Assembly (NCBI GenBank): GCA_041664365.1
Contig: JBAYKW010000002.1
Location: forward strand, 11,858 to 75,857
DNA: 64,000 nucleotides
DNA from: Patescibacteria group bacterium
GTDB lineage: Bacteria > Patescibacteriota > Patescibacteriia > UM-FILTER-42-10
Direction of reading: 5' to 3'
Shown here: positions 2,725-50,367 of the stretch, piece by piece
Layout: the number at the start of each line of letters is the position of its first letter
Numbering within the stretch: position 1 is the first letter of the stretch
Notes under the pieces: model-generated
Databases searched by the model: none
What the model saw: only the letters and a program-made list of their open reading frames with translations
Told to the model about the DNA's origin: nothing
Made by a program: the position numbers and the translations under genes

Positions 2725-2811
2725 ATCGAAAGCCTTCAGCTTGAGAGACTTTTGATTTCCCAAAAGTTAAAGCTTAAGCTGAATTGTTCATTCACAGTTC
2801 GGAGGTTTGTC

Positions 2812-3888
2812 ATGAAGACGTACCGACCCTGCGCCGGCGCGATTCCCGAGTCGATTGATACCCGCTACCAGGAGGCGCTGCAGACCAAAGGACTTCGGTA
2901 TGGCATTATCGAAGTCACCACCCGTTGTCAGTGTGCCTGTCCGGGGTGCTATATGGTGCGCCGCAATTTCTTGAACAAAAAGGAGATGTCCCTGTCAGAT
3001 GCAATCCGGATTCTGGATTTGTGCCGTGATTACCGCGGCGCGGAACTGGAAACGATGGACCTCTTAGGCGGGGAGCCGCTGTTGTGGCCGCACCTGCAGG
3101 AGTTCATTGAGGAGCTGCTGCGCCGCGGGATTCTGCCTTGGGTTTTCACCAACATGCTGGCGATCACGCCCGAGCTCGCGCGGTGGTTGCATGAGCACAA
3201 GGTGCATGTTACCGGCAAGCTGAACATCGATCCTTCCGATCCCGCGCAGTATCCGCTGCAGGCGGAGATGCTGGGTCGGGGGATGAATGTGGTGCGGCAA
3301 CTGCTTTCCGCGATCCGGATTTTTCAGGCGGCCGGGTATGAGGACCCACTGTTCCGTTTGCAGAACCTGATCCGCAAACAGAACCTGGAATTTGTGCCGG
3401 GTTACTACAGTTGGTGCCTTGCACAGAAGATCGGCACGGATCTGGAACTGATGGGTTCCGGCGAGCCGATCGGTCCTGACTACTGGCGGATTGCCCCTAA
3501 CCCTAAACAGCTGGCGGGTATGATCCGCAAGATCCAGGCGGTCCGCAAGGAATTCGGCCTGGCGGAAGCCGAGGTACTGATGCCGCACGTGTTCGGCTCC
3601 TGTCCTTTCTACGACAAGGGTCTTTACTTCGCGGCGGACGGGCACATCCGCGCCTGCTCCAACTCTACGGTCCAGCTTTCACAAACCGCCGATCCGGATC
3701 CGATCCGGAAAGCCTATGAGTCACCGCTGATCTGTAGCCGTCTAATGCTTTCGCAGAGTGCGGTTGGGGAACCCTGTGGCAGCTGCAGTAAGTGGGACAA
3801 GTGCCGTGGCGGATGCCGGGCGACGGTGGAAGGTACCGGCGATCCTTTCGGCGGGTACCCGCTATGCCCGGTGCCTTTTCTGGACTGA
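2812..3888 (+). CDS. radical SAM enzyme with a C-terminal SPASM domain (peptide- or protein-modifying maturase family)
   Basis: CX3CX2C cluster motif TTRCQCACPGCY near the N-terminus. C-terminal CGSCSKWDKCRGGC is a Cx2Cx5Cx3C SPASM signature, and there are additional upstream Cys. GGAGG RBS 7 nt before the ATG at 2812. About 60% GC. Confidence 0.7.
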   Translation: MKTYRPCAGAIPESIDTRYQEALQTKGLRYGIIEVTTRCQCACPGCYMVRRNFLNKKEMSLSDAIRILDLCRDYRGAELETMDLLGGEPLLWPHLQEFIEELLRRGILPWVFTNMLAITPELARWLHEHKVHVTGKLNIDPSDPAQYPLQAEMLGRGMNVVRQLLSAIRIFQAAGYEDPLFRLQNLIRKQNLEFVPGYYSWCLAQKIGTDLELMGSGEPIGPDYWRIAPNPKQLAGMIRKIQAVRKEFGLAEAEVLMPHVFGSCPFYDKGLYFAADGHIRACSNSTVQLSQTADPDPIRKAYESPLICSRLMLSQSAVGEPCGSCSKWDKCRGGCRATVEGTGDPFGGYPLCPVPFLD

Positions 3889-4415: not shown

Positions 4416-4477
4416 GGTATTTGTTAAGGTAAATGACCGTTTTAGCTGTTCACTTTAGGCACGAGGAGGTATACATC

Positions 4478-5836
4478 GTGATCATCAAGCGTTACGCACT
4501 GCTTCCGATGCGAGAACTTTGGCTCCGGGAAGAGAGCAAGTTCGAGCACTGGCTGGATGTTGAGCTAGCGGTTCTGCGCGCACGCGAACATTTGGGGATG
4601 GCACCTAAAGGTGCGTATATGAGCGTCCTCAAGCATGCTGCGTTCACTGTGGACAGGATCGCGGAGATCGAGGCGGAAGTGGATCACGACCTGATCGCTT
4701 TCGTCACCAACGTCCGCGAGTCGCTCGAAGCGGCCGGTATCGGCCATTTGTGTTCGGAAATCCATAAGGAGATTACGAGCTACGACGTGGAGGATCCGGC
4801 GCTGATTCTGATGCTCCGCAAGGCGGTCCATCTGGACATCAACGCGCTGAGATCGCTGGAACAGTCCTTACGGAGGAAGGCGCAGGAACACCAGTGGACC
4901 TGGATGATCATGCGCACGCACGGACAGTTCGCCGAACCTTCCACCTTCGGCCATCTTCTGCTGGTGTTTGCCGAAGAAATCCGGCGATGCATCGTCAAGC
5001 TCGAGACTCCGATGAACACTGATCTGTCCGAGGGGAAGATCTCCGGCGCGGTCGGCAGTTTCGCCGGCATTAGGCCAGCCGTGGAGCAGATTGCGCTGGA
5101 AGTGCTGGGTTTGATGCCTGCCAAGGCGGAAACCCAGATCCTACAGCGTGACCGTCACGCTGCGCTACTCTGCACGTTGGCAGTCTGCGGAGGAGTGATC
5201 GAGCAGATCGCAAAGACCTTCTGGGTGATGATGCGCAGCGAGGTGCGCGAACTCCGTGAACCGCGCAAGCCGAAGCAGAAGGGTTCCTCGGCGATGCCGG
5301 GCAAGCGCAATCCGATCCTGACGGAACGGCTCATGGGCATGTCCCGTCTGCTCCGTGCGGATGCAATGTGTGCGCTGGAGAACATCGCCACTTTCGAGGG
5401 ACGGGAAATCTCCCAGTCCAGTGTGGAACGCCACATCTTCGCGCGGTCAACGACGCTCGTTCACTACATGGCCATTAAGCTGGCCGGAATGGTGGACAGT
5501 CTCGAAGTTTTTCCGGAGCAGATGCTTCATAACCTGAAGGAGGAGTCACTCGGAGTGTGGGCCGGACAGCGGGTCCGTCATGCACTGGAGGAGGCGGGGA
5601 CTCACCACGAAGTGGCCTACCGCTACATTCAGGCGTGTTCGTTCCAGGCCGAGGCCGAACGGACGCATCTGCGAGACGTACTGCGCAGAACGTTGATTTG
5701 GGATGTTGTGGAAGACAGCGATGACGATCGTAGCGCCGAGGATCGGCTGGGTCGGAATGGTCTCAGGGCATGCTTCGACCACGAAGCCTATGCCACGGCC
5801 GGCATCGAACACATCTTCTCCCGCCAGACGGCGTAG
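4478..5836 (+). CDS. purB: adenylosuccinate lyase-like enzyme (fumarate-lyase superfamily, PurB-type)
   Basis: N-terminus VIIKRYALLPMRELWLREESKFEHWLDVELAVLRA parallels the PurB N-terminus (MIERYxxPEMxxIW..E.KFxxWL.VE). Fumarate-lyase signature GSSAMPGKRNP. GAGGAGG RBS before the GTG at 4478; the ATG at 4433 is an alternative start. About 60% GC. Confidence 0.65.
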   Translation: MIIKRYALLPMRELWLREESKFEHWLDVELAVLRAREHLGMAPKGAYMSVLKHAAFTVDRIAEIEAEVDHDLIAFVTNVRESLEAAGIGHLCSEIHKEITSYDVEDPALILMLRKAVHLDINALRSLEQSLRRKAQEHQWTWMIMRTHGQFAEPSTFGHLLLVFAEEIRRCIVKLETPMNTDLSEGKISGAVGSFAGIRPAVEQIALEVLGLMPAKAETQILQRDRHAALLCTLAVCGGVIEQIAKTFWVMMRSEVRELREPRKPKQKGSSAMPGKRNPILTERLMGMSRLLRADAMCALENIATFEGREISQSSVERHIFARSTTLVHYMAIKLAGMVDSLEVFPEQMLHNLKEESLGVWAGQRVRHALEEAGTHHEVAYRYIQACSFQAEAERTHLRDVLRRTLIWDVVEDSDDDRSAEDRLGRNGLRACFDHEAYATAGIEHIFSRQTA

Positions 5837-24436: not shown

Positions 24437-24517
24437 CACTGCGTTTGACTCAATTCAGATGTTTTTGTAAGATGATAGACCGTTTTAGTGAGGATTTTCG
24501 GACCAGGGGAGGGTTAT

Positions 24518-25867
24518 ATGCCTATCGACACGATTTGTGGTCTCCAACGGGGAGACGAAGGCAAGGGCGCGATCGTTGATCGCAAACTGGCCTCAGGTAA
24601 GTACACCTGGAATGTCCGTTTCCAGGGAGGTGCCAACGCTGGCCACACTGTGAAGGCTGGTGGAAAGAAGTTGATTCTGCACCAAATCCCTTCTGGCGTC
24701 ATGCACGAGCGGGTCAGGCTGGGCCTCGGTCAGGGCATGATTATCGATCCGTTCGGTCTCCGCGATGAAGTCGAACAGCTTCGGGTTATGGACATCGATG
24801 CGACGGCGCGACTGTGTGTTTCTTCCGGTGCCAAGATCGTCTGTCCGTGGGACAAGCTCCTGGACGGCGCGATCGATCGCGTGCGAGCCAAGGCTATGGG
24901 CATGCAGGTCGCGGAGGGCGGCGGCGTCGGTACTACCAACCGCGGGATCGGTCCCGGCTATGCTAATGCGGTGTCACGGGACGGCATCACGGTGGCGCAG
25001 CTGGTCCGGCCGAACGTGCTCTTCAATCGGATCAAAGTCGTGGTCCCGGTGATCAACTGCATGATCCGCGGTGTGCGCCAGGAGCTGGATTTATCGGAAG
25101 AGCAGCTACCGGAGTACACTGTTTCCGGTGCGTTTGAACAGCTCGCTCCGATCGGCGAATGGATGTCGCTGATTGCGTATCCGCTGCATGAACTGCTGCG
25201 GGTTGCACTTATGGAAGGTGAATTCTTACTCGCAGAGGGCGGACAGGGTTATTTCCTGTCCAACGACTGCACTGTGAGCTATCCCAGCTGCACTTCCTCG
25301 ATCACGACGGCCAACGCCGTTTTCTCGGGGCTCGGACTCGAACTGCGAAGAAGCTGGATCGGTAGCACGATCGGCGTGGTCAAGGCGTACCAGACGGCAG
25401 TGGGTAATCATCCGATGCCCACCTACATCGGCAACGAGTACCAGGAGCGTATCCAGCGGATCGGTGGCGAAATCGGCGCGTCGACCGGCCGGATACGTGA
25501 CTGCTGCTGGCTGAACGGTTTGGAGCTTCGCGAGGCTGCTCAGTTTTGCGACGTGATCTACGTCACCAAGCTGGATGTGCTGTCCGGGATTCCGCTGATT
25601 CCGATCGCAACCGCCCTGCATCCTGACAACCATGCTCCGAATCATCCAGTGCTGACCGATCTCCCGCAAACCTGGGAGGAGTACATGCTCTGCCAGCCGA
25701 TCTACGGCATCAACGTGACCGGCTGGAACGAGGACATCTCCGGCATTCGCAGGATTGCCGACTTGCCGAGCAGTGCGCAGGAATACTTGGCTACGATTGC
25801 CAAGATTGCGTCCAGGATGGTCATCTGCGTCGGTGTCGGTCCTGAACGCGAGCAGTTCTGCGTTTAG
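24518..25867 (+). CDS. purA: adenylosuccinate synthetase family protein (PurA-like; substrate specificity not resolved)
   Basis: GLQRGDEGKGAIVD (P-loop, catalytic Asp), RFQGGANAGHTV (catalytic His retained, first His replaced by Ala), GTTNRGIGPGY, GASTGRIRDCCWLN, TKLDVL. GGGGAGGG RBS before the ATG at 24518. About 62% GC. Confidence 0.7.
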   Translation: MPIDTICGLQRGDEGKGAIVDRKLASGKYTWNVRFQGGANAGHTVKAGGKKLILHQIPSGVMHERVRLGLGQGMIIDPFGLRDEVEQLRVMDIDATARLCVSSGAKIVCPWDKLLDGAIDRVRAKAMGMQVAEGGGVGTTNRGIGPGYANAVSRDGITVAQLVRPNVLFNRIKVVVPVINCMIRGVRQELDLSEEQLPEYTVSGAFEQLAPIGEWMSLIAYPLHELLRVALMEGEFLLAEGGQGYFLSNDCTVSYPSCTSSITTANAVFSGLGLELRRSWIGSTIGVVKAYQTAVGNHPMPTYIGNEYQERIQRIGGEIGASTGRIRDCCWLNGLELREAAQFCDVIYVTKLDVLSGIPLIPIATALHPDNHAPNHPVLTDLPQTWEEYMLCQPIYGINVTGWNEDISGIRRIADLPSSAQEYLATIAKIASRMVICVGVGPEREQFCV

Positions 25868-26783: not shown

Positions 26784-29714
26784 ATGCCAGAAGAAACACA
26801 AACAATTACACAAACAAAGGTTCAGGGAAACGAAACAAGTATTAAAGATTCTTCTCTTGATGAGAGCGAAGAAATACAAATAGAAAAAAAGAAAGGTTTA
26901 ACTTTTGAACGTTTCTTCTCTCATTCAGGGAAGCATCCCTTTGACGATGTTAAATGGGAAAGGCGCGATGCTACAATTACTGATCCGAAAGGAAATATAA
27001 TCTTCGAACAGAAGAATGTAGAGTTTCCTGTTTTTTGGACTCAGAATGCAACCAATATTTGTGTTTCCAAATATTTCTATGGCGACGAAAAAAAAGGTGA
27101 AAGAGAAAACAGTGTAAAACAGCTTGTTGATCGTGTTTCACGAACCATGACCGATTGGGGAAAGAAAGACGGATATTTCGCCTCGGAAGAGGATGGAGAA
27201 AATTTTTATAACGAACTAACCTTCCTGTTAGTAAATCAGTATGCCGCCTTCAACAGCCCGGTGTGGTTTAACTGTGGTGTAAATCGTTATGATACAGGAT
27301 CCGGAGCCGGCAGATACTATTGGAATAAAGAACAGGGGAAAGTATTATTGGCCGAGGATGACTACACTTATCCGCAATGCTCCGCCTGTTTTATTAATTC
27401 CGTGGAAGATTCTATGGATTCTATTTTGAGTTTATCCAAAACAGAAGGAATGCTGTTCAAGTTCGGATCCGGCACCGGTACTAATCTTTCAACTATCAGA
27501 TCTTCAAGGGAAAGGTTGAGTGGCGGAGGGCAGTCGTCCGGTCCAGTATCATTTATGAAGGGTTTTGATGCGTTTGCGGGTGTTATTAAATCCGGTGGAA
27601 AAACCCGCCGGGCCGCTAAAATGGTGATTCTAAACGCTGATCATCCGGATATCGTTGATTTTATTGATTCCAAGGCCAATGAAGAAAAGAAAGCCTGGGC
27701 TTTGATTGACGCGGGATACAATGGTGCAATTGACGGCGAAGCATATACTTCTATTTTCTTCCAAAATGCCAATAACAGTGTCCGAGTAACCGATAAGTTT
27801 ATGGAAGCAGCGATGGAAAACAAGAAATGGAAAACGCACGCGGTGACAACCGGTGAAGAAATGGAAACGTATAATGCCCGGGATCTGATGCAAAAGATTG
27901 CCGATGCAACATATATTTGCGGTGATCCGGGTCTGCAGTTTGATACAACGATCAATGATTGGCACACTTGTCCGAATACCGACCGGATTAACGCATCCAA
28001 TCCTTGCAGTGAATACATGTTCCTGAACGATTCTGCCTGCAATCTGGCCTCCCTTAATTTAATGAAATTTACAAATGAACAGGGAGTATTTGACATTGAT
28101 TCTTATTTGCATGCCGTGGACGTAATGATTACTGCGCAAGAAATTGTAGTTGATCATGCCAGCTATCCAACGGCAGAGATTACAAAGAATAGTCATCTGT
28201 TCAGACCGCTAGGGCTTGGGTATGCTAATCTCGGAGCACTCTTAATGTCGCTAGGTCTTGCGTACGACAGCGACGAAGGAAGAGCCTGGGGCGGGTTAGT
28301 TACTTCAATCATGACCGGGCGCGCTTACCGGCAGTCAACTTTGATTGCTAATGTCGTGGGTACATTCGCGGAATATGAAACGAACCGCAGCCCGTTCCTG
28401 CGCGTTATGAGAAAACACAGAGACGCTGTTTATGATATCAGAGATTTTAATAAACAATCAGCGGAATTGAAAATAACGGCCGGGGAAATCTGGGATGAGG
28501 TAGTGGAAATGGGACAGCAATACGGATTCCGCAATGCTCAAACAACAGTACTTGCTCCGACCGGAACAATCGGGTTCCTAATGGACTGTGATACTACCGG
28601 AATTGAGCCCGACATTGCTTTGGTCAAATATAAGAAGTTGGTCGGTGGTGGCTATATGAAGATCGTAAATTCAACCGTGCCATTGGCGCTTAGACATTTG
28701 GGATACACTAATGAGCAGATCAATGCAATTATTGACTACATTGACAGTAACGACACGATTGAAGGCGCGCCTTCTTTGGATGAAGATCATCTGTCTGTAT
28801 TTGACTGCGCATTCAGACCAAGTAATGGCGTAAGATCGATTCATCATATGGGTCATATTAAAATGATGTCCGCGGCTCAACCTTTCCTGTCCGGTGCAAT
28901 TTCTAAAACAGTTAATATGCCGGAAGAATCCAAGGTGGAAGATATCATGGACGCATATATTCAAGCCTGGAAGCTGGGCCTGAAAGCAGTTGCGGTTTAT
29001 CGTGACGGTTCCAAGCGCACGCAGCCGCTAAATACTGGTAAGGAAGACGGCAATAAAAAGGAAAAGACAAACGGTGATCAGGTGATCCGTCTGAAACTGC
29101 CTGATGAAAGACAGTCAATTACCCATAAATTTGAAATAGCCGGACATGAAGGATATATCACCGCGGGACTCTACGAAACAGGTGAAGTTGGGGAAATCTT
29201 TATCACCATGTCCAAAGAGGGTAGTACACTCTCCGGAATTATGGACGCATTTGCTACTTCCATATCTCTTAACCTGCAATACGGCGTGCCTTTGAAAGTT
29301 CTGGTCAGTAAGTTCACCCATTCCCGTTTTGAACCGGCAGGATTTACCTCCAACAAACAGATCCCGATGGTTAAATCAATTATGGATTATATTTTCCGCT
29401 GGCTTGCGATCAAATTCCTGAGACCGGAAGAAGCGGCACTGGTTCATAATGCTTTGTTGATTGGCAATGACCAGAAGGAGATGGAAGTAAAAAATACTGA
29501 AGTTAGAAAAGAGAAGGAAAAAGAAACCGTTGCAAAACCCGGTGCAGGACAGGAACCACTACCTTCATTCAAAGAAAAGTCCGAACAACAGGAACTGTTA
29601 ACATTCCAGAATTCTGAGGATGCCCCATTCTGCGGGGAGTGTGGATCAATCATGGTGCGCAGCGGATCCTGCTATAAATGCATAGAATGCGGATCTACCA
29701 GCGGGTGCTCTTAA
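26784..29714 (+). CDS. nrdJ: class II (adenosylcobalamin-dependent) ribonucleotide reductase with a C-terminal zinc ribbon
   Basis: 976-aa RNR fold with an N-terminal ATP-cone-like region and the active-site Cys/Asn/Glu region (NPCSEYMFLNDSACNLASLNL). C-terminal CGECGS...CYKCIECGS. Context: nrdR upstream, cobalamin adenosyltransferase downstream. Confidence 0.75.
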   Translation: MPEETQTITQTKVQGNETSIKDSSLDESEEIQIEKKKGLTFERFFSHSGKHPFDDVKWERRDATITDPKGNIIFEQKNVEFPVFWTQNATNICVSKYFYGDEKKGERENSVKQLVDRVSRTMTDWGKKDGYFASEEDGENFYNELTFLLVNQYAAFNSPVWFNCGVNRYDTGSGAGRYYWNKEQGKVLLAEDDYTYPQCSACFINSVEDSMDSILSLSKTEGMLFKFGSGTGTNLSTIRSSRERLSGGGQSSGPVSFMKGFDAFAGVIKSGGKTRRAAKMVILNADHPDIVDFIDSKANEEKKAWALIDAGYNGAIDGEAYTSIFFQNANNSVRVTDKFMEAAMENKKWKTHAVTTGEEMETYNARDLMQKIADATYICGDPGLQFDTTINDWHTCPNTDRINASNPCSEYMFLNDSACNLASLNLMKFTNEQGVFDIDSYLHAVDVMITAQEIVVDHASYPTAEITKNSHLFRPLGLGYANLGALLMSLGLAYDSDEGRAWGGLVTSIMTGRAYRQSTLIANVVGTFAEYETNRSPFLRVMRKHRDAVYDIRDFNKQSAELKITAGEIWDEVVEMGQQYGFRNAQTTVLAPTGTIGFLMDCDTTGIEPDIALVKYKKLVGGGYMKIVNSTVPLALRHLGYTNEQINAIIDYIDSNDTIEGAPSLDEDHLSVFDCAFRPSNGVRSIHHMGHIKMMSAAQPFLSGAISKTVNMPEESKVEDIMDAYIQAWKLGLKAVAVYRDGSKRTQPLNTGKEDGNKKEKTNGDQVIRLKLPDERQSITHKFEIAGHEGYITAGLYETGEVGEIFITMSKEGSTLSGIMDAFATSISLNLQYGVPLKVLVSKFTHSRFEPAGFTSNKQIPMVKSIMDYIFRWLAIKFLRPEEAALVHNALLIGNDQKEMEVKNTEVRKEKEKETVAKPGAGQEPLPSFKEKSEQQELLTFQNSEDAPFCGECGSIMVRSGSCYKCIECGSTSGCS

Positions 29715-30317: not shown

Positions 30318-30329
30318 TTGAAAACATAA

Positions 30330-30527
30330 TATTAAACTGGAATAGTACCAGGGAACACCGGTGTAAATCCGGGGCAGTCCCGCTACTGTAATCTCAGGGC
30401 ATTTTTTTAGAAAATGTACTGGGAAAGTCAGAATACTGGTATATTCAAAATTAATTCTTTCTCCGCGGATAGGGAAAGAGGTAAAACTGCCGATTTTGCC
30501 TTCCTGTCCTAGGAAGGTTTTTTAATA
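30330..30527 (+). ncRNA. cobalamin (AdoCbl) riboswitch with a terminator-type expression platform
   Basis: cAGGGAAcaccGGTGtAAATCCggggcagtcccGCTACTGTAA matches the conserved core and B12-box of the cobalamin riboswitch consensus. Downstream hairpin GCCTTCCTGTCCTAGGAAGG plus TTTTTT lies 30 nt before the 30557 gene. Confidence 0.7.
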
Positions 30528-31022: not shown

Positions 31023-31598
31023 ATGAAAAATATTTCTTGGAGAAAATTAGTATTCGCTTTACTGCTTATCGCGTTTGGCACACTTGGCAGATATTTGTTA
31101 CTGGATATGCCGAATATTGAAACTATGACGGCGATTTCGCTGTTGGCCGGAGCGCTCTTAGGCGGAGGGTATGCGCTGGCGGTTCCTTTGTTATCAGTTG
31201 CTCTATTTGATATTTTCTACGGTAACAGTTCGATTCTTTTCTTTACCTGGTCGGCCTGGGCAATGATCGGACTGATCGGGTTAGTTTTGAAAAAGAAAAA
31301 GATGTCTGCATGGAAGTTTACAGCCGGTATGACCGGACTGGGAGTTTTATCATCAGTATTATTTTATATATGGACAAATTTCGGTGTCTGGCTGATCGGC
31401 GATTGGTATCCGGAAACAGTAGGTGGTCTAATGACCTGCATGATTGCCGGATTGCCATTTCTTAAAGCGCAAATACTGGGAAACCTGATAGTCGTCCCGA
31501 TAATTTCCATTTCTCTAAGTTTCGTCTGGCAAAAATTTGAGGTTTTACAGCTAAGATTAACGAAAAATAAGCCAAAAAACTCCGATATTGTAATTTAA
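31023..31598 (+). CDS. ECF-transporter S-component-like membrane protein (putative cobalamin-specific, CbrT-like)
   Basis: About 190 aa with 5-6 TM helices. Immediately downstream of the riboswitch-controlled B12-binding protein. The ATG at 31023 is preferred over the overlapping TTG/ATG at 30966. Confidence 0.45.
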   Translation: MKNISWRKLVFALLLIAFGTLGRYLLLDMPNIETMTAISLLAGALLGGGYALAVPLLSVALFDIFYGNSSILFFTWSAWAMIGLIGLVLKKKKMSAWKFTAGMTGLGVLSSVLFYIWTNFGVWLIGDWYPETVGGLMTCMIAGLPFLKAQILGNLIVVPIISISLSFVWQKFEVLQLRLTKNKPKNSDIVI

Positions 31599-31621
31599 TA
31601 ACATTTACAAATCAGAAGATG

Positions 31622-31652
31622 AAGGGCGCTTCGACAAAAAGCGCTCTTTTAT
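31622..31652 (+). terminator. rho-independent terminator
   Basis: GGGCGCTT-cgacaaa-AAGCGCTC followed by TTTT. Confidence 0.55.
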
Positions 31653-31698
31653 CATGCTCACACCTTGACAAATCAAAAAAAGTATGACAAAGTAGTCT

Positions 31699-31716
31699 GT
31701 TACGAATATTCGTAAC
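31699..31716. promoter_or_regulatory. perfect 18-bp palindrome GTTACGAATATTCGTAAC upstream of the SPFH-like gene; candidate operator
   Basis: Read directly. About 140 bp upstream of the ATG at 31854. Confidence 0.55.
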
Positions 31717-31853
31717 TCAGTATAGAATGACCTTTGAAAAACAGGTTTTGTTACCTGTGTCATAACACAACTAGAAAACACTTGGCAGATAGACGAAGAA
31801 ACGGGGAAATCAATTCTGGTTTTCCCAACGGGACACGAGTGAAGGAGACAGTC

Positions 31854-33647
31854 ATGAATTCGTTCAACAAGTTCGGCCAAGCTCGGTGGTATGCGATGGT
31901 CTTCATCGGCGTGATTACCGCTGCGCAGGTGGTTAGGGGCAACTGGTTCGGTTTCGTGGAAGGTCTGTTGTCGATGGGAATCATGGCCGTCATGATGTGG
32001 GTGTGGCTGCCGATCTTCATCCGACAGCTGGCCGACCAGTACCTTTTCTTCTTGCGGGCGAAGGAAATGCGCGCCTACATGATTGAGAAGGACGGAAAGT
32101 TGGTCCGGCTCATCATCGCGGTACTGGCAAAGGACCGTCCGCGGTTCGAGGTGCTCAAGATGGAACAAGAAGCAAGGGGAATCCGGGTTGACCTGGTTGA
32201 CCCTTCGAGCTCCTTGTATTACATCGGAGTGCCTTGGAAGTTCAAGGCCAAGTTTTGGTTTGAGTATCCGGCGGACGAAACGTCTCCCGAATTGCATCCC
32301 CAGTACTCGATGATTCTTTCTGAAAGGACCATCGATTACCAAGCGCCCGAAGTGCCCACGGCGGACTTCATTGAGATCACTGCCAAGCTGGTGATCTCAT
32401 TGATTGTGGTGAATCCGCTCAAAGCAGTTTATGGCGTTAACCATTACATGGAGGCAGTGATCTTCCTGATCAACTCCAGGTGGCGTAGGGTTGCCACTAC
32501 TCTGCACTTCTTCTACTACGGAGAGGATGCAGAGGCGCCAAAGGATCTCAATACGGTGCTCTCCAGACTGGAGACACTAAAGAGAGATCCGGAAATCTAT
32601 CAGAAGGCTCACGGAGCACTGCTGGTGGATCTCTGGCTGGCCGGGCGCTGTCAGAAGTACAAGGTCGCTGTCGGGGAAGATGGCAATCCCAAAGCAATTG
32701 CTGACGGGAGGCCGGAACCTCGATACTGGAACGTCCAGGACTCCAAGGTAATGGATGGCACGGAGACTTTCGGAGGAAATGTCTACAACGTCTATGGAGA
32801 CTTTGAAGGCAGATTCTTCTATGTTCGCGAAGAAGCGGATGAAAGCCTCGTGCTGATGTGTGGTAAGGAAGGAGAATCCCCGATTTCATTCGTCGAAAGC
32901 GACCGTAGCAAGGTCGTGGTCAGACCGGAACAGCGCGTGCTGTTTCTGTTTACCAAGTCGGGAGATTCTTGGGATGGGGTCCGTGCCTACTTCAAGTACG
33001 GGATTCCCGCCGACAAGCCGGCTCGTCGGCTAGTCATACACTTCGGTGTCTTCCCGAAAGACGTCGAAATACAAGACATCGGCACCCAGCGCAATATCAA
33101 GGAGGCCCTGGAAAAGCCCGCTATTGCCATTGCCAATGCTCTTGCTGCCAGGCAAGAAGCAGAAGGAATGAAAGCGGTCAAGGTTCTTGAAGCAGAAGGG
33201 GAAAAGCAGGCCAAGATCCTTCAGGGTGAAGGTGAAGAGAAGCGTTTGTCCTCTGTGGGCGCAGGCGAGGGCACAGCGAAGCGCCTGGTTGGTGAAGGAG
33301 AAGGCGCGGCAGTGCTTGCGGTCCACAAGGGACACGCCGATGGTTTCGCCGCTCAAATGGCGGCGCTTGGAATCAAACCGGGCGAGGCGGCTGCCTTGTC
33401 TATGTTGAGTGCCGAAGCAGTGCGTCAAATGGCAATTTCTGCTAAGCAGCTCACTGTTATAGGGGCTGAAGGCATTAACAACCTATTTGGCGTTGTGCCG
33501 GCTCTTGCGCAGCTCTGGAACAGAGAAGGGAACACTCCCTCTGAAGCTGATGTGATCAAAGTATTGTCCGGCCTTAGCGTGGCTGAACGACAGTCCGTGT
33601 TCGATGCGTTGCCCAGAACCAATAGTGGTGAGGACAGCGTTTCCTAA
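31854..33647 (+). CDS. SPFH/band-7 domain protein with a flotillin-type C-terminal coiled/EA-repeat region and a central insertion of about 200 aa
   Basis: N-terminal TM helices. Band-7 block DFIEITAKLVISLIVVNPLKAVYGVNHYMEAVIFLINSRWRRVATT fits the SPFH pattern D..ka.y.v.ny..av..l..t.lR. The C-terminus (KEALEKPAIAIANALAARQEAEGMKAVKVLEAEGEKQAKIL...AAALSMLSAEAVRQMAISAKQLTVIGAEG) resembles flotillin/YqiK tails. AAGGAG RBS. About 60% GC. Confidence 0.6.
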   Translation: MNSFNKFGQARWYAMVFIGVITAAQVVRGNWFGFVEGLLSMGIMAVMMWVWLPIFIRQLADQYLFFLRAKEMRAYMIEKDGKLVRLIIAVLAKDRPRFEVLKMEQEARGIRVDLVDPSSSLYYIGVPWKFKAKFWFEYPADETSPELHPQYSMILSERTIDYQAPEVPTADFIEITAKLVISLIVVNPLKAVYGVNHYMEAVIFLINSRWRRVATTLHFFYYGEDAEAPKDLNTVLSRLETLKRDPEIYQKAHGALLVDLWLAGRCQKYKVAVGEDGNPKAIADGRPEPRYWNVQDSKVMDGTETFGGNVYNVYGDFEGRFFYVREEADESLVLMCGKEGESPISFVESDRSKVVVRPEQRVLFLFTKSGDSWDGVRAYFKYGIPADKPARRLVIHFGVFPKDVEIQDIGTQRNIKEALEKPAIAIANALAARQEAEGMKAVKVLEAEGEKQAKILQGEGEEKRLSSVGAGEGTAKRLVGEGEGAAVLAVHKGHADGFAAQMAALGIKPGEAAALSMLSAEAVRQMAISAKQLTVIGAEGINNLFGVVPALAQLWNREGNTPSEADVIKVLSGLSVAERQSVFDALPRTNSGEDSVS

Positions 33648-33664
33648 ATTCGTGGAGGTGTGTC

Positions 33665-34768
33665 GTGGACATTCTGCTTCTCATAGTTCTTCTGCTGGCA
33701 TTTGGTGCGTATTCCCTGAATTCCTGGTTCAGGAAACGCAACGGCACCAGCACTCAACGCAGAGTAACGAGTAGTTCGAGACTGCTCTTCCCAACCATCG
33801 CGCTCATCGTGATCGCGGTGATCGGACACTACGTCTTTCACTGGAAGGTGGGTAGCGCCATCTTCCTCATCATCCTGACTGCTGCGGTGGTCGGTGGTAT
33901 CTGGTGGTTCCGGCGCAAACCGGCCTACTCCCGTTTCGGTGGTAAGCCGTTCGGTACGTTCGTCGGTAACAATATCAAACTCATCGGATGGCTCGTGTTC
34001 CACGTGGCCTTCTGGTGCGTGGTCGCAAACATGGACGGCAACTGGGACTACGTCAAGGAGTGGTGGTGGGGTAAGTACAGCTTGTTTCTGTACCCCATGC
34101 ACTTGATCTACATCACGCGCGGCAGCTTTCCGGACGTGGTCACAGGGAAGTACACTTTCCCGAACAGGATCACGAAGTGGGCATTCACATTCCTGTTCAT
34201 TCTGATGCTGTATGCACCGTTCTGCCACGTTACTCAGCGCGAGTCGATCCTGAGCCGATACGCGGGCTTCAACGAGTCCGGTTCGGCGCACTACAACATT
34301 CCGGGTCGGCAGTCGCCTGACTCGGACGAACTTCAGCGCGGGCAGTTCAATATCAACGTCACGCCGGAAGGACGTGACGCGAACGGTCTCGTGAAGAAGA
34401 TGAGGGTTGGCACTTTGCCGGCCGGTACCACGTGGATCCAGACCTGGAATATCAGTGGTCGGGTCTACACCAAATATCTGATCTATCAGTGGATCGGCGA
34501 CCGGCTGAAAGTCTACGACAAGATCCTCGTTGACAACAATCAGTTGGCTTCGCCGGACACCGATGGCGATGGCTTCTTGACCGTCAGCCAGAGTCCGTTG
34601 ATGCTCATGCTGGGTGCCGACGGGAAGACGGGGTGGAAGATCGTCAATTCCGAGCGGTACGAATTCGCACCCCTGGCTCAGGATACCGAGGTATTTGTCC
34701 TGATCTACTCCGATCAGGAGAGACCCGGTACTGGAGGCGTCAGCTTCCATCTGCGGTCAGGAATCTGA
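33665..34768 (+). CDS. GC-rich polytopic membrane protein (about 6 TM) with a C-terminal soluble beta-rich domain; operon partner of the SPFH protein
   Basis: Hydrophobic helices (LLLIVLLLAFGAY, LLFPTIALIVIAVIGHYVF, AIFLIILTAAVVGGIWWF, IGWLVFHVAFWCVV...). Begins 17 bp after the upstream stop. A strong terminator follows. Confidence 0.5.
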   Translation: MDILLLIVLLLAFGAYSLNSWFRKRNGTSTQRRVTSSSRLLFPTIALIVIAVIGHYVFHWKVGSAIFLIILTAAVVGGIWWFRRKPAYSRFGGKPFGTFVGNNIKLIGWLVFHVAFWCVVANMDGNWDYVKEWWWGKYSLFLYPMHLIYITRGSFPDVVTGKYTFPNRITKWAFTFLFILMLYAPFCHVTQRESILSRYAGFNESGSAHYNIPGRQSPDSDELQRGQFNINVTPEGRDANGLVKKMRVGTLPAGTTWIQTWNISGRVYTKYLIYQWIGDRLKVYDKILVDNNQLASPDTDGDGFLTVSQSPLMLMLGADGKTGWKIVNSERYEFAPLAQDTEVFVLIYSDQERPGTGGVSFHLRSGI

Positions 34769-34805
34769 TATGTACATTTCCTGGGTGGCCCCATGCACAG
34801 TGTCT

Positions 34806-34862
34806 TACAAACGCTCGTGCATGGACCACCCTTTTTTCTTACAAAAAAAACTGTTTTCAGTG
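34806..34862 (+). terminator. rho-independent terminator
   Basis: GGTGGCCCCATGCAC...GTGCATGGACCACC long hairpin followed by CTTTTTTCTT. Confidence 0.6.
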
Positions 34863-34997
34863 CATTAATTGAATTTTGTTTGAATTAAATATTGGGGCCC
34901 CCGACGAGCGTAGCTCGGTGGGGAAAGGGGTATAGACTCGAAACTAAAATAATCGAGTTTATAACTCGATTATGACAGTGGAGAGTCTAATGACCCG

Positions 34998-35074
34998 TGG
35001 TAGCAGGGGAGAGGTTCGAACTCTCGACCTCGGGCTTATGAGTCCCGCGCTCTAACCAGCTGAGCTACCCTGCC
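34998..35074 (-). tRNA. tRNA-Met (CAT), elongator-type
   Basis: Minus-strand cloverleaf GGCAGGG-TA-GCTC.AGCTGGTTA.GAGC...CTCATAA...GAGAG.TTCGAAC.CTCTC-CCCTGCT-A-CCA. G1-U72 pairs, CCA encoded. Confidence 0.75.
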
Positions 35075-35377
35075 GCGTCCTTTTTATGCTTCAGGTTTCG
35101 TACTTCCCGCTTTGCGGGAACTACTTCACCTTTCGCATAAAAACTCCTTTCCTCGCAAAGGCGTGCTCGTCGAGCTTACGCTCTCCTGCGCTACTCCTTT
35201 GCTCGGGTTTTTATTCTTTATATTTTATGACTTGTGTGCTTCTATAACACTCGGTTGGTTTTGAGTTTAATTGGGGCCCCCGACGAGCAAAGCTCGGTGG
35301 GGAAAGGGGCATAATGCGTAGGGTGAAGTGAATGCAATAATTTGCAGACACGGAACCCGAAGCATTTAAATGACCCT

Positions 35378-35453
35378 TGGTTGCGGGGGGCGGACTCGAA
35401 CCGCCGACCTCCAGGTTATGAGCCTGACGAGCTGACCACTGCTCTACCCCGCG
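35378..35453 (-). tRNA. tRNA-Met (CAT), initiator-like (C1xA72 mismatch)
   Basis: CGCGGGG-TA-GAGC.AGTGGTCA.GCTC...CAGG.CTCATAA.CCTG...GGCGG.TTCGAGT.CCGCC-CCCCGCA-A-CCA. An unpaired C1/A72 and GG/CC pairs next to the anticodon loop suggest tRNA-fMet. Confidence 0.65.
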
Positions 35454-35818
35454 TCGAGTGATCGCGAACTGCGACCTACATTTGTCCGGAACTGATGTTC
35501 CGAACAAATTCCGATCTCCGTTCGCGTCCCTCTCTCCTCGCAAAGGCGTGCTCGTCGAGCTCACGCTCTCCTGCGCTACTCCTTTGCTCGGGTTTTATAT
35601 TCTATGCCTTATGCGCTTCCAATTTACTCGTTAGAATTTTTATTGTTAATATGCTACCGCAGTTTAGCCTAAATATATTATTTTGGCAAGTTTCATAGTG
35701 TATATCGTAAAATGGGGTCCCCGACGAGCAAAGCTCGGTGTGGAGAGGGACACAAATGTGAAAGGTGAAGTGAATGCAATAATTTGCAGACACGGAACCT
35801 AAAACATTTGATGACCCG

Positions 35819-35905
35819 TGGTACCGGGAGAGAGACTTGAACTCTCATGATGTTGCCATCACTGGATTTTGAGTCCAGCGCGTCTGCCAGTTCCGCCATC
35901 CCGGC
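35819..35905 (-). tRNA. tRNA-Leu (CAA) with a long variable arm
   Basis: GCCGGGA-TG-GCGG.AACTGGCAGA.CGC...CTGGA.CTCAAAA.TCCAG-TGATGGCAACATCATG-AGAG.TTCAAGT.CTCT-CTCCCGGT-A-CCA read from the minus strand. Confidence 0.75.
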
Positions 35906-35912
35906 TTGATTT
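35888..35912. repeat. 25-bp direct repeat DR1 (the tRNA-Leu 5' end plus 7 nt of upstream flank)
   Basis: cagttccgccatcccggcttgattt. Identical to 36280-36304 except that the preceding base differs. Confidence 0.8.
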
Positions 35913-35913
35913 A

Positions 35914-36168
35914 CTATATGTTCGATAATGTGTTTCTGAGCAATGCTCTTAATGATTTCTTTCCTTTACTGGTTTTAAAGTAGCGTTCTCTTTTTTCAGC
36001 ATCTTCTTTATTATTGAACATTTCATAGAAAATAATCTTAACAGGTAATCTATGTTTAGTAAAAGTGCTTTTACCCTGCCTATGTTCTTTTAAACGTCTT
36101 TCAAGGTTATTAGTAATACCTGCATAAAGTTGCTTATTGGATAAAAGCAAAATATAAACAGAAAACAT
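35914..36168 (-). CDS. small GIY-YIG nuclease-domain protein (UPF0213/YhbQ-like, 84 aa)
   Basis: MFSVYILLLSNKQLYAGITNNLERRLKEHRQGKSTFTKHRLPVKIIFYEMFNNKEDAEKRERYFK carries the GIY-YIG core (VYIL...YAGIT.NLERRL.EH...E). AT-rich. Lies between the two 25-bp direct repeats. Confidence 0.65.
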   Translation of the reverse strand: MFSVYILLLSNKQLYAGITNNLERRLKEHRQGKSTFTKHRLPVKIIFYEMFNNKEDAEKRERYFKTSKGKKSLRALLRNTLSNI

Positions 36169-36279
36169 GTTGATATTGTATTACGGATTATTAAATAACA
36201 ATGATTAGTAAATAGTAATTTCCGCCATCTCGTACCACACAGGGTACGTGATAGCCATGAACCCTTTAGTGGTTCATGG

Positions 36280-36304
36280 CAGTTCCGCCATCCCGGCTTG
36301 ATTT
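36280..36304. repeat. 25-bp direct repeat DR2 (an orphan copy of the tRNA-Leu 5' end), preceded by a perfect hairpin GCCATGAACC-ctttagt-GGTTCATGGC
   Basis: ggttcatggCAGTTCCGCCATCCCGGCTTGATTTgaaaca read directly. Confidence 0.8.
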
Positions 36305-36365
36305 GAAACAGATATTACAAATATCTTTATCTCATACACTAGTCTAAATGGAATACAGCTTTCCT

Positions 36366-36403
36366 GTCAACCTCGTTAGAGAAAAACTCTCTAACGGGGT
36401 CAA
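36366..36403. promoter_or_regulatory. palindromic intergenic element (copy 2) upstream of the parA promoter
   Basis: gtcaacctcgttagagaaaaactctctaacggggtcaa. A TATAAT sits at about 36451 before parA. Confidence 0.55.
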
Positions 36404-36481
36404 CTGGTTTAATTGGTAGTGGCAATATCTGTAAAAATTGGTATAATATAAAAGTTATATAACAATAAAGAGTATCTTTTA

Positions 36482-37246
36482 ATGGCTCGAATTATTTCGT
36501 TAGTAAATCAGAAAGGTGGTGTTGGTAAAACAACCACTGCGGTCAATCTCGGAGCATATCTGGCGCAAATGGGCCGTTTTGTTTTGTTGGTGGATATTGA
36601 TCCGCAGGGTAATGCATCTTCAGGTGTGGGAGTCGAAATGAGAAAGGTCCAAAAAGGTGTTTATGAAGCAATTATCAACCAAGCTTCTTTTCGGGATATC
36701 ACGCAACATACTCAAATTGATGGATACAAAGTAGCTCCGGCAACCATGTCACTAGCCGGTGCCAATATTGAACTGGTGCCTTTTGAGCAGAGAGAGTACC
36801 GGTTGCATAATAGTTTGATGGAGATAAAGCACGATTTTGATTACATAATAATTGATTGTCCACCAAGTCTGGGTCTTTTGACTATTAACGGGTTGGTGGC
36901 AGCCGATGAAATATTAATCCCGGTCCAAAGTGAATACTATGCGCTGGAAGGATTGGGCCATCTGCTTAATACCGTGAATTTGATTAAGGAGAATCTGAAA
37001 CCGGATTTAAAAATATTGGGTGCGGTCTTAACAATGTATGACCGGAGATATCAGTTGTCTCAGGAGGTAATGAACGAATTATACAAATTCTTCCCGGATA
37101 AAATATTCCGCTCGGTTATACCGCGTAATGTAAGACTGGCGGAAGCCCCGTCTTTTGGTGAGTCAATTCTAACCTACGATCCAAAATCAAAAGGCGCGAA
37201 AGCTTATGAGCGTTTGGCGCGTGAAATTATTGATACAGAAAATTAA
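36482..37246 (+). CDS. parA: chromosome partitioning ATPase ParA/Soj
   Basis: Deviant Walker A NQKGGVGKTTTAVNLGAYLA and ParA-family blocks (LLVDIDPQGNAS, IIIDCPPSLGLLT). Confidence 0.85.
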   Translation: MARIISLVNQKGGVGKTTTAVNLGAYLAQMGRFVLLVDIDPQGNASSGVGVEMRKVQKGVYEAIINQASFRDITQHTQIDGYKVAPATMSLAGANIELVPFEQREYRLHNSLMEIKHDFDYIIIDCPPSLGLLTINGLVAADEILIPVQSEYYALEGLGHLLNTVNLIKENLKPDLKILGAVLTMYDRRYQLSQEVMNELYKFFPDKIFRSVIPRNVRLAEAPSFGESILTYDPKSKGAKAYERLAREIIDTEN

Positions 37247-50292: not shown

Positions 50293-50367
50293 GTCCCGTT
50301 AGCTTAATGGCAGAGCAGCTGACATCTCAATCAGCCGATCGGGGTTCGAGTCCTCGACGGGGCACCA
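50293..50367 (+). tRNA. tRNA-like gene with an 8-nt anticodon loop (CATCTCAA); anticodon unresolved (CTC or TCT possible)
   Basis: GTCCCGT-TA-GCTT.AATGGCA.GAGC-A-GCTGA.CATCTCAA.TCAGC-CGAT-CGGGG.TTCGAGT.CCTCG-ACGGGGC-A-CCA. The cloverleaf is otherwise good. Confidence 0.5.

Follow-up and report, generated by a model that had tools for sequence, protein, structure and literature searches.

Within a 64,000-nucleotide stretch of contig JBAYKW010000002.1 from a Patescibacteria group bacterium (assembly GCA_041664365.1), the whole of which is called the window hereafter, two plus-strand genes separated by 17 bp, at 31854-33647 (gene 1, 597 amino acids, aa) and 33665-34768 (gene 2, 367 aa), were found to encode a putative SPFH scaffold protein and a multi-spanning membrane partner. 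The pair is a real two-gene operon lying between a conserved sigma-70-like promoter and a single terminator, and it is fixed in the chromosomes of a single Patescibacteria clade rather than being mobile. Its architecture varies the known combination of an SPFH protein with an operon partner, here from an undescribed family. A reading to which we give somewhat better than an even chance is that of a clade-specific, chromosomally fixed operon whose closest analogues would be QmcA-YbbJ, FloT-NfeD2 and HflK/C-FtsH. A first-pass annotation of this DNA had recognised a two-gene operon of atypical composition, and the open reading frames (ORFs), their spacing and the GC excess were all borne out. It had not recognised the architecture, and our analysis agrees that this is not a described one.

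The loci of relatives compared with the window are numbered L001 to L018. Wherever the flanks sufficed to score it (L001-L011 and L015-L017; L012 comes without flanking sequence), gene order was conserved as NrdR, class II ribonucleotide reductase (RNR), CobA, DUF4430, DUF6580, the SPFH gene, its partner, tRNA-Met, tRNA-Met and tRNA-Leu, continuing past tRNA-Leu with ParA, ParB, a TPR protein, RelA/SpoT and TopA. As had been annotated, the operon sits directly beside tRNA genes, namely tRNA-Met, tRNA-Met and tRNA-Leu on the minus strand immediately downstream of the pair; this three-tRNA array, also conserved among the relatives, does not mark a site of integration. A search of 5.8e9 proteins gave four hits, with three homologues of the partner, and an exhaustive HMMER search gave only seven representatives among 1.84e9 protein clusters, while a single species-representative genome in a GTDB-based collection carries the locus, this being also a Patescibacteria metagenome-assembled genome. 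No relative of the pair was found in IMG/VR, GenBank phages or PLSDB, neither an integrase nor flanking direct repeats were seen at the locus, and no mobility gene lies within 31599-34990. Hence, the proposal of a horizontally acquired module had to be abandoned, since relatives hold the pair in the same slot behind the same promoter and leader. Conserved context had been expected at first pass to go with ordinary FloT/FloA-NfeD housekeeping pairs; the context is indeed conserved, and so speaks against a mobile module, but the pair is not an ordinary FloT/FloA-NfeD one. The features of the operon, all on the plus strand, are as follows.

31624-31651, plus strand: terminator-like hairpin GGGCGCTTC...GCGCTCTTTT ending the DUF4430/DUF6580 unit, followed by a T-run and conserved in four lineages
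31665-31693, plus strand: sigma-70-like promoter, with -35 TTGACA (31665-31670), 17-nt spacer, TG (31685-31686) and -10 CAAAGT (31688-31693)
31699-31716, plus strand: perfect 18-bp palindrome GTTACGAATATTCGTAAC, with 7-nt arms GTTACGA/TCGTAAC and a 4-nt spacer, about 6 nt after the -10
31803-31826, plus strand: second leader hairpin GGGGAAATCAATTCTGGTTTTCCC, predicted by RNAalifold, preceding the Shine-Dalgarno sequence AAGGAG (31842-31847)
31854-33647, plus strand: gene 1, divergent SPFH/Band-7 scaffold protein of "type A" as judged from Band_7 (23.3 bits), profile matches to the PDB and full-length homologues in L010 and L012
31887-32021, plus strand: N-terminal hydrophobic hairpin of gene 1, residues 12-56, a probable membrane anchor
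32319-32501, plus strand: first SPFH block, residues 156-216, covering Band_7 profile positions 41-105 and matching PH1511 stomatin (2rpb)
32502-33053, plus strand: insertion, residues about 217-400, helical then beta-rich, of no recognisable family
33054-33644, plus strand: second SPFH block, AEGE-type repeat helix and C-terminal region, residues 401-597, aligning to QmcA 170-300 and HflC 202-283
33665-34768, plus strand: gene 2, 367-aa partner from a family without database annotation
33665-34234, plus strand: six predicted transmembrane (TM) helices of gene 2, residues 1-190, from model and alignments, with the conserved core WLVFHVAFW...EWWWGKYSLFLYPMHLIY
34307-34765, plus strand: predicted beta-sandwich domain of gene 2, residues 215-367, with a PDTDGDG (DxDxDG-like) loop, probably outside the cytoplasm
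34783-34840, plus strand: intrinsic terminator of the operon, with a stem at 34783-34831 and a U-run UUUUUUCUU to 34840

Both start codons are supported by comparison. The ATG of gene 1 at 31854 follows the AAGGAG motif and matches the starts of six other lineages in the alignment of upstream regions, and gene 2 begins with GTG, a choice backed by the alignment of its N-terminus with homologue P0006.

Profile comparisons assign gene 1 to the SPFH superfamily. Alone, the window protein reached 23.3 bits on Pfam Band_7, just below the cutoff of 23.6, and gave weak PDB matches to QmcA and to the PH1511 stomatin core. When a two-sequence profile of the window and L010 proteins was used, matches were obtained with QmcA (8e-9), HflC (2e-3) and PH1511 (3e-3), and more weakly with prohibitin and major vault protein (MVP). 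Besides, the SPFH genes of relatives in the same slot score 31.9-62.6 bits on Band_7. The near-cutoff Band_7 score and the QmcA match thus agree with the SPFH core proposed at first pass. The flotillin-type EA-repeat tail proposed with it was not retained, since the best tail matches are QmcA and HflC, with AEGE-type repeats and nothing flotillin-specific. Indeed, no flotillin family or structure appeared among the Pfam, NCBIfam and PDB matches, of which the best are QmcA, HflC and stomatin, and membership of the flotillins (SPFH2: FloT/YqiK/reggie) was rejected. Full-length homologues, at 39-40% identity, are those of L010 (606 aa, 40%) and L012. Word-indexed searches with the full-length protein or with residues 1-425 returned only the query, a sensitivity limit of these searches, as the homologues were later reached through the neighbours of the partner.

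The N-terminal hairpin consists of two hydrophobic stretches with lysine or arginine on both outer sides, and these flanking charges suggest a cytoplasmic SPFH domain; helices at residues 4-27 and 31-63 appear in a low-confidence single-sequence AlphaFold2 model (predicted local distance difference test score, pLDDT, 38.9). SPFH-like blocks at residues 156-216 and about 401-500 place an insertion of ~185 aa inside the SPFH domain. A long helix at residues 413-460 comes from the same low-confidence model. The insertion has no Pfam match, and none in the PDB when searched alone as a profile. It is kept in L010 (38% identity) and in L012, and is absent from outgroup L015, whose Band_7 domain is contiguous (84-281). 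The large insertion lacking a recognisable domain had been seen correctly at first pass, with an extent that is here corrected from 230-430 to about 217-400. Nor is it a common flotillin feature, being absent in L015 and differing in length and sequence between the other two SPFH forms.

Gene 2 matched no Pfam, NCBIfam, PHROG or PADLOC family and no catalytic motif was found in it. An AlphaFold2 model built on a 10-sequence alignment (mean pLDDT 70.9; 80-94 over most of the C-terminal domain) shows six TM helices followed by a beta-sandwich at about residues 215-367, in line with the six-TM partner with a C-terminal soluble beta domain anticipated from the sequence. The modelled domain is predicted to be a beta-sandwich of the lectin or carbohydrate-binding-module type, closest to the PA-IL/PllA lectins, and its PDTDGDG loop resembles DxDxDG calcium sites. 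Loops 1, 3 and 5 are positively charged in the window protein. Across the family, loop 3 is positive in nearly all members covering it, loop 5 in most and loop 1 in about half of those having it, while loop 4 is neutral to acidic. When the positive-inside rule is applied to these charges, the beta-sandwich is fairly likely to face outwards. The NCBI name of the protein, 'SoxR reducing system RseC family protein', was examined and rejected: PF04246 scores only 15.6 bits against a cutoff of 24.4, over one TM stretch (residues 41-85), and the name is probably a wrong over-annotation. As a separate observation, a distant relative of the N-terminal region of the type A SPFH protein (32% identity over 230 aa) occurs at L018 2036-4470, on another AT-rich, Patescibacteria-like contig, after lgt, among other neighbours and with ordinary composition. 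It is followed by a 236-aa single-TM, beta-rich protein not detectably related to the partner, so that L018 repeats the general layout, an SPFH gene and then a small beta protein anchored in the membrane, with another partner.

Upstream regions were aligned from seven lineages, which have the 17-nt promoter spacer in common. The -35 element is identical in the six of them in which that region could be aligned and the extended -10 is conserved in all seven, the -10 of relatives being TAGAGT or TAGGGT and the extended form TGnTAGAGT reading TGACAAAGT in the window. A strict consensus promoter scan did not call the promoter at 31665-31693, which was read from the sequence. Just upstream, the hairpin at 31624-31651 was flagged by the terminator scan on the minus strand (31644-31626); its plus-strand reading rests on the T-run and the four-lineage conservation. 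The unit that it ends carries an AdoCbl (B12) riboswitch at 30324-30487 (57.3 bits, above the gathering score), which precedes DUF4430 and DUF6580, themselves directly after class II RNR and CobA. These upstream neighbours thus look B12-related, and their cluster is set apart from the pair by the conserved terminator and by the pair's own promoter.

The perfect 18-bp palindrome announced at first pass proved real and belongs to the operon. It is single-copy in the window, where 0.04 occurrences of the 18-mer would be expected at up to three mismatches, and its gapped form was matched in none of 100 shuffles. Its arms are invariant in 7/7 lineages, including outgroup L015, with a spacer of 4, 5 or 16 nt. 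The palindrome folds as a hairpin (folding free energy, dG, -7.5), and transcription would start at it. As an invariant inverted repeat at the predicted transcript start, it could function either as a stem-loop at the transcript's 5' terminus or by binding a sequence-specific factor, and would then control expression or mRNA stability. The variable spacer speaks for an RNA hairpin with which the transcript would begin, while the absence of covariation favours sequence-specific recognition. That the palindrome is instead a DNA operator for a dimeric repressor is possible, although we lean the other way. All 14 arm positions are invariant in the seven lineages while adjoining bases vary, as if the sequence itself were read, and overlap of the transcription start just past the -10 is typical of repressor operators. 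However, a spacer of variable length is awkward for a dimer requiring fixed half-site spacing, the 16-nt spacer of L001 is itself self-complementary and lengthens the stem (dG -10.6, z-score -4.5), no second copy occurs in the 64-kb window or the 17-kb loci of relatives, and no regulator gene adjoins the operon. To our knowledge, from an informal comparison, the palindrome resembles none of the LexA/Cheo, CIRCE and CtsR boxes.

The second leader hairpin shows one compensatory pair and several G-U changes; it is present in six of the seven lineages and absent from outgroup L015. An Rfam scan of 31500-36500 at E <= 1 returned tRNAs only, the leader matching no family. At the other end of the operon, the terminator folds with a dG of -31.7 kcal/mol (z-score -6.2), a value reached by none of 200 shuffles. 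The strong terminator annotated at first pass is therefore present, at 34783-34840, slightly upstream of the 34806-34862 first given.

In spite of this constant setting, the proteins themselves have diverged strongly. Flanking proteins pair the window with L010 (RNR 95%, ParA 94%, ParB 91% identity), group L001, L005 and L009 together and leave L015 outside (CobA 64%). For the pair itself, identity between the window and L010 drops to 40% (SPFH protein) and 45% (partner), with nonsynonymous divergence (dN) of 0.57 and 0.51 versus 0.03-0.14 in the flanks, i.e., the dN of the pair is 4-20 times that of its neighbours; synonymous divergence (dS) is at or near saturation everywhere. Over 31825-34990, nucleotide similarity collapses. 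Three forms of the SPFH protein share the slot: type A (597-606 aa) in the window, L010 and L012; type B (458-488 aa) in L001, L005, L009 and L016, with Band_7 also split, by an insertion of roughly 140 aa as estimated from Band_7 coordinates; and type C (365 aa) in L015, with contiguous Band_7. No significant alignment was obtained between types A and B or A and C, even by profile-profile comparison, which gave 77% probability over 80 residues for B versus C. The partners fall into group I (37-66% identical internally) and group II (34-45%), with 22-31% identity between groups. Type A occurs with a group I partner in the window and L010 and with a group II partner in L012, and the L010 partner shares 51-54% identity with those of L001, L005 and L009 but only 44-47% with the partner of the window, its sister. 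Such discordances suggest some reassortment or very unequal rates, within a small sample in which L012 lacks flanks.

Comparison of close strains (L016 vs L008/L009) gave only three single-nucleotide polymorphisms (SNPs), all non-synonymous, over 4.3 kb including the island formed by the pair. Ongoing hypermutation was rejected on this ground, and no reverse transcriptase gene of a diversity-generating retroelement-like system was seen in the locus. The same strains are 98.7-99.5% identical, with dense SNP patches (L016 3597-3897 and 8168-10955), e.g., in DUF6580 (16 SNPs within 300 bp), ParA, ParB and the TPR gene, and hardly any SNPs along the stretches that separate them. This patchiness points to recombination imports in these Patescibacteria populations. 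A recent sweep had been considered as the cause of the low SNP density of the island, and was dropped because the flank SNPs are clustered in patches.

These observations bear on a second way of seeing the locus, as one of allelic cassettes in which anciently diverged, interchangeable SPFH and partner alleles would be exchanged between lineages through homologous recombination at the conserved leader and on the tRNA side, as in O-antigen or capsule loci, with a GC-rich third position acquired from repeated GC-richer import or GC-biased gene conversion. We consider it unlikely, while it has several points in its favour: the SPFH types resist alignment to each other directly after a conserved leader, type A is found with both partner groups, the L010 partner is nearer to that of more distant loci than to its sister's, the similarity breakpoints are sharp at the ends of the coding block, and the patchy flanks show that recombination does occur in these populations. 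However, no outside gene pool was found beyond the clade among the 1.84e9 representatives, nor in IMG/VR, phages or plasmids, and otherwise the SPFH types group as the flanking genes do (window with L010; L001, L005 and L009 together; L015 as outgroup). Moreover, the island is the least variable stretch between close strains and not the most, the species position of L012 is uncertain for want of flanks, and unequal rates alone could yield the discordances.

The composition of the pair is equally unusual. GC content is 0.540 in gene 1 and 0.557 in gene 2, against 0.38-0.44 in the six neighbouring genes and 0.439 in the whole window. This excess arises because third codon positions are GC-rich, GC at these positions (GC3) being 0.63 and 0.75 in the two genes and 0.36-0.48 in the neighbours. 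The same holds in every lineage, with GC3 of 0.51-0.78 in the pair and 0.19-0.48 in the flanks, and GC at fourfold sites of 0.52-0.73 and 0.17-0.59, respectively. Identity at fourfold sites is only 0.33-0.58, hence these sites have turned over. Under a two-state mutation model, a single ancient transfer followed by drift to host composition would be expected to have erased the difference. As the excess persists in lineages with saturated synonymous sites, the pair is not foreign DNA that has yet to drift. Island GC3 roughly follows that of the host with an offset: L010 has the highest values, and L015, L016 and L005 the lowest. The excess would then stem either from repeated replacement of the alleles by others from a GC-richer pool or from a force specific to the locus that holds GC3 up.

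The pair is not alone in this respect, and the genome holds two discrete codon-usage classes. Relative synonymous codon usage (RSCU) of the pair correlates with that of four other GC-rich window genes (r = 0.84), encoding an NTP-transferase with hexapeptide repeats, a radical SAM protein, a PurB-like lyase and a PurA-like synthetase, and hardly with that of fifteen ordinary genes (r = about 0.08). The GC3-rich class of the window comprises 56-391, 439-1755, 2752-3888, 4433-5836 and 24488-25867 in addition to 31854-34768, including a 111-aa ORF, with GC3 of 0.68-0.76 vs about 0.30-0.50 in most other ORFs; AT-rich genes lie between its members, and the window contains no ribosomal-protein genes. 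The PurA-like gene of the sister lineage L017 is GC-rich too (about 0.6) and 75% identical. A more speculative proposal, rather improbable in our view, is that the pair belongs to a class of genes whose GC3, ~0.2-0.35 above that of the host, is kept by a locus-specific force, as a rapidly diversifying module of the episymbiont envelope or host interface, one whose outward-facing lectin-like domain and variable scaffold insertion would keep pace with changes in hosts or phages. Such a force might be GC-biased gene conversion at loci prone to recombination, repeated import of alleles from a pool not yet sampled, or selection on synonymous sites.

How the pair may work can be approached through its analogues. 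A membrane partner that combines TM helices with a soluble beta domain and co-evolves with the SPFH protein is commonly encoded in the same operon (PMC2636767), and SPFH paralogues are in many cases highly divergent and of narrow distribution (PMC13086221). By analogy, SPFH subunits would assemble through the C-terminal helix into a ring- or cage-like oligomer at the cytoplasmic side of the membrane, and this assembly would enclose or organise the polytopic partner, as HflK/C does with FtsH and QmcA with YbbJ. The partner beta-sandwich, turned outwards, could then bind an envelope or host-surface ligand, possibly a glycan and possibly in a Ca2+-dependent manner through the DxDxDG loop. The contact between the two proteins, the cage, the ligand and any role of the insertion are all drawn from such analogies. 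The rapid divergence would reflect weak constraint or diversifying selection on a surface-related module; it fits a surface or host-interface role in an episymbiotic lineage, while relaxed constraint alone would also explain it.

Several points weigh against this reading of a fixed operon with an SPFH scaffold and an exposed partner. The model of gene 1 has a pLDDT of only 38.9, so the cage, its orientation and the role of the insertion are conjectural, and the SPFH-partner interaction is likewise proposed from analogy and not from experiment or structure. In NfeD pairs both soluble domains are cytoplasmic; an outward beta domain facing away from a cytoplasmic SPFH domain would imply a contact unlike theirs. 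TM5 of gene 2 is short (13 residues), which makes the opposite topology possible, and the DxDxDG loop is deleted in the distant members that form partner group II. Finally, the reading leaves unaccounted for both the persistently high GC3 and the existence of three mutually unalignable SPFH forms.

It was also considered whether this might be an ordinary SPFH-NfeD pair whose partner is a very divergent NfeD, which appears very unlikely. In ybbJ-qmcA and yuaF-floT the NfeD gene lies upstream of the SPFH gene, and here the partner lies downstream. The general layout is alike, with TM helices then an all-beta soluble domain beside an SPFH gene, and NfeD sequences are poorly conserved, YuaF and PH0471 being only 21% identical (PMC2636767). 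However, neither Pfam nor NCBIfam gave an NfeD match even at E <= 1, the partner has six TM helices and 367 aa instead of the three N-terminal hydrophobic stretches and about 140-150 aa of most NfeD proteins (PMC2636767), and the predicted topology would put its soluble domain outside the cell. Gene 2 was consequently not assigned to the NfeD family (OB-fold barrel, PF01957; PH0471, YuaF), in agreement with the first pass, to which it was not an obvious NfeD; the missing match, the length and the six predicted TM helices all concur.

A recently acquired mobile module, e.g., a stress or defence island inserted beside tRNA genes, is scarcely credible: atypical GC and codon usage, the adjoining tRNA genes and the rarity of the family would suit it, but the slot, promoter and tRNA array are the same wherever flanks are available, including in an outgroup with a CobA only 64% identical, no integrase or flanking direct repeats were seen at the locus, PADLOC and PHROGs gave no match and viral and plasmid collections no relative, and island GC3 stays ~0.2-0.35 above the flanks even in lineages with dS >= 1. 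A known anti-phage defence system was likewise rejected, since neither protein matches PADLOC-DB at E <= 1 or PHROGs and the literature search found no SPFH-based defence system described.

Other observations concern the surroundings of the operon. In the window at 34891-35809, each of the three tRNA genes lies within a repeated unit of ~380-440 bp, and these units share a 44-nt GC-rich hairpin-like block (3 copies, 80-100%), a 65-nt block (2 copies, 97%) and a 55-nt block (2 copies, 89%). The tRNA order is constant in relatives, over a spacing of 905 to 1467 bp. Next to them, a GIY-YIG gene of 84 aa (35914-36168, minus strand; Pfam 2e-16) stands between two copies of a 28-nt repeat at 35885-35912, overlapping the tRNA-Leu gene, and 36277-36304. 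The ~365-bp GIY-YIG segment is absent from the sister locus L010, and the segment at 35885-36304 looks like a small mobile insertion beside tRNA-Leu. Farther away, a tRNA flanked by tRNA-Glu and tRNA-Arg(tct) was called by ARAGORN at 50293-50367, with an anticodon of four bases (tctc) and no amino acid assigned to it; the same tRNA is normal by Rfam (52.6 bits), so that an 8-nt anticodon loop or a scoring artefact could be involved. In L004, at 1-2853, the class II RNR gene, related to that of the window (26784-29714), is called in pieces around an HNH_3 endonuclease ORF, which suggests an intein or intron-type insertion absent from other strains.

SPFH scaffolds are universal and their functions poorly understood, most knowledge coming from NfeD or FtsH partners. 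The locus supplies a previously undescribed membrane partner family and, in a single slot, a natural series without insertion, with ~140 aa and with ~185 aa, a help in asking what changes the SPFH surface can accommodate. Here, too, atypical composition is plainly no sign of recent horizontal transfer, a practical caution when islands are called in the small, AT-rich genomes of candidate-phyla-radiation bacteria. As a fast-evolving membrane pair with a predicted exposed lectin-like domain, it is a reasonable candidate for host or envelope interaction in Patescibacteria. Its main interest lies in fast modular evolution at a fixed locus together with a persistent second codon-usage class, moderated by the inferred nature of the function and by how common divergent SPFH genes are (PMC13086221).

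Among known systems, precedents exist for both unusual aspects of the pair. Flotillin-associated rhodopsin loci join SPFH genes to non-NfeD membrane partners, according to the title and abstract of PMC10308929, and the PaFlo SPFH genes of Pseudomonas illustrate very divergent SPFH paralogues confined to few lineages (PMC13086221). The partner families of these loci differ from that of the window, and a fixed locus with persistent atypical codon usage is mentioned in neither the titles nor the abstracts of these sources. The E. coli pair QmcA (YbbK)-YbbJ, of the p-stomatin/SPFH1a type (PDB 8z5g), is the best match for the gene 1 tail (8e-9), and shares with the window pair an N-terminal membrane anchor and a two-gene operon with a membrane partner. 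Unlike it, the window SPFH domain is split by the ~185-aa insertion and its core barely reaches the Pfam cutoff, while the partner has six TM helices and a predicted lectin-like beta-sandwich that is probably extracytoplasmic. Gene 1 also recalls FloT/YqiK (SPFH2) with NfeD2 (YuaF/YqiJ) by its ~500-600 aa, N-terminal anchor, SPFH domain, long repeat-rich helical region and operon partner. However, it owes its extra length to an insertion within the SPFH domain, unlike giant SPFH2 proteins, in which the coiled coil is expanded (PMC2636767); its partner is no NfeD2, and Pfam, NCBIfam and PDB gave no flotillin-specific match. HflK/C-FtsH, whose HflC aligns to gene 1 residues about 415-498 (E 0.002), offers a model for an SPFH cage enclosing a polytopic client. 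In contrast to this periplasm-facing hetero-oligomer with a protease client, the window has a single SPFH gene, whose product is probably cytoplasmic, and a partner without catalytic motif. Lastly, the gene 2 domain is compared with the galactophilic lectins PA-IL (LecA), PllA and EclA at 8-16% sequence identity and without a Pfam match; PA-IL-type lectins are soluble, whereas this predicted lectin-like domain is fused to a six-TM anchor.

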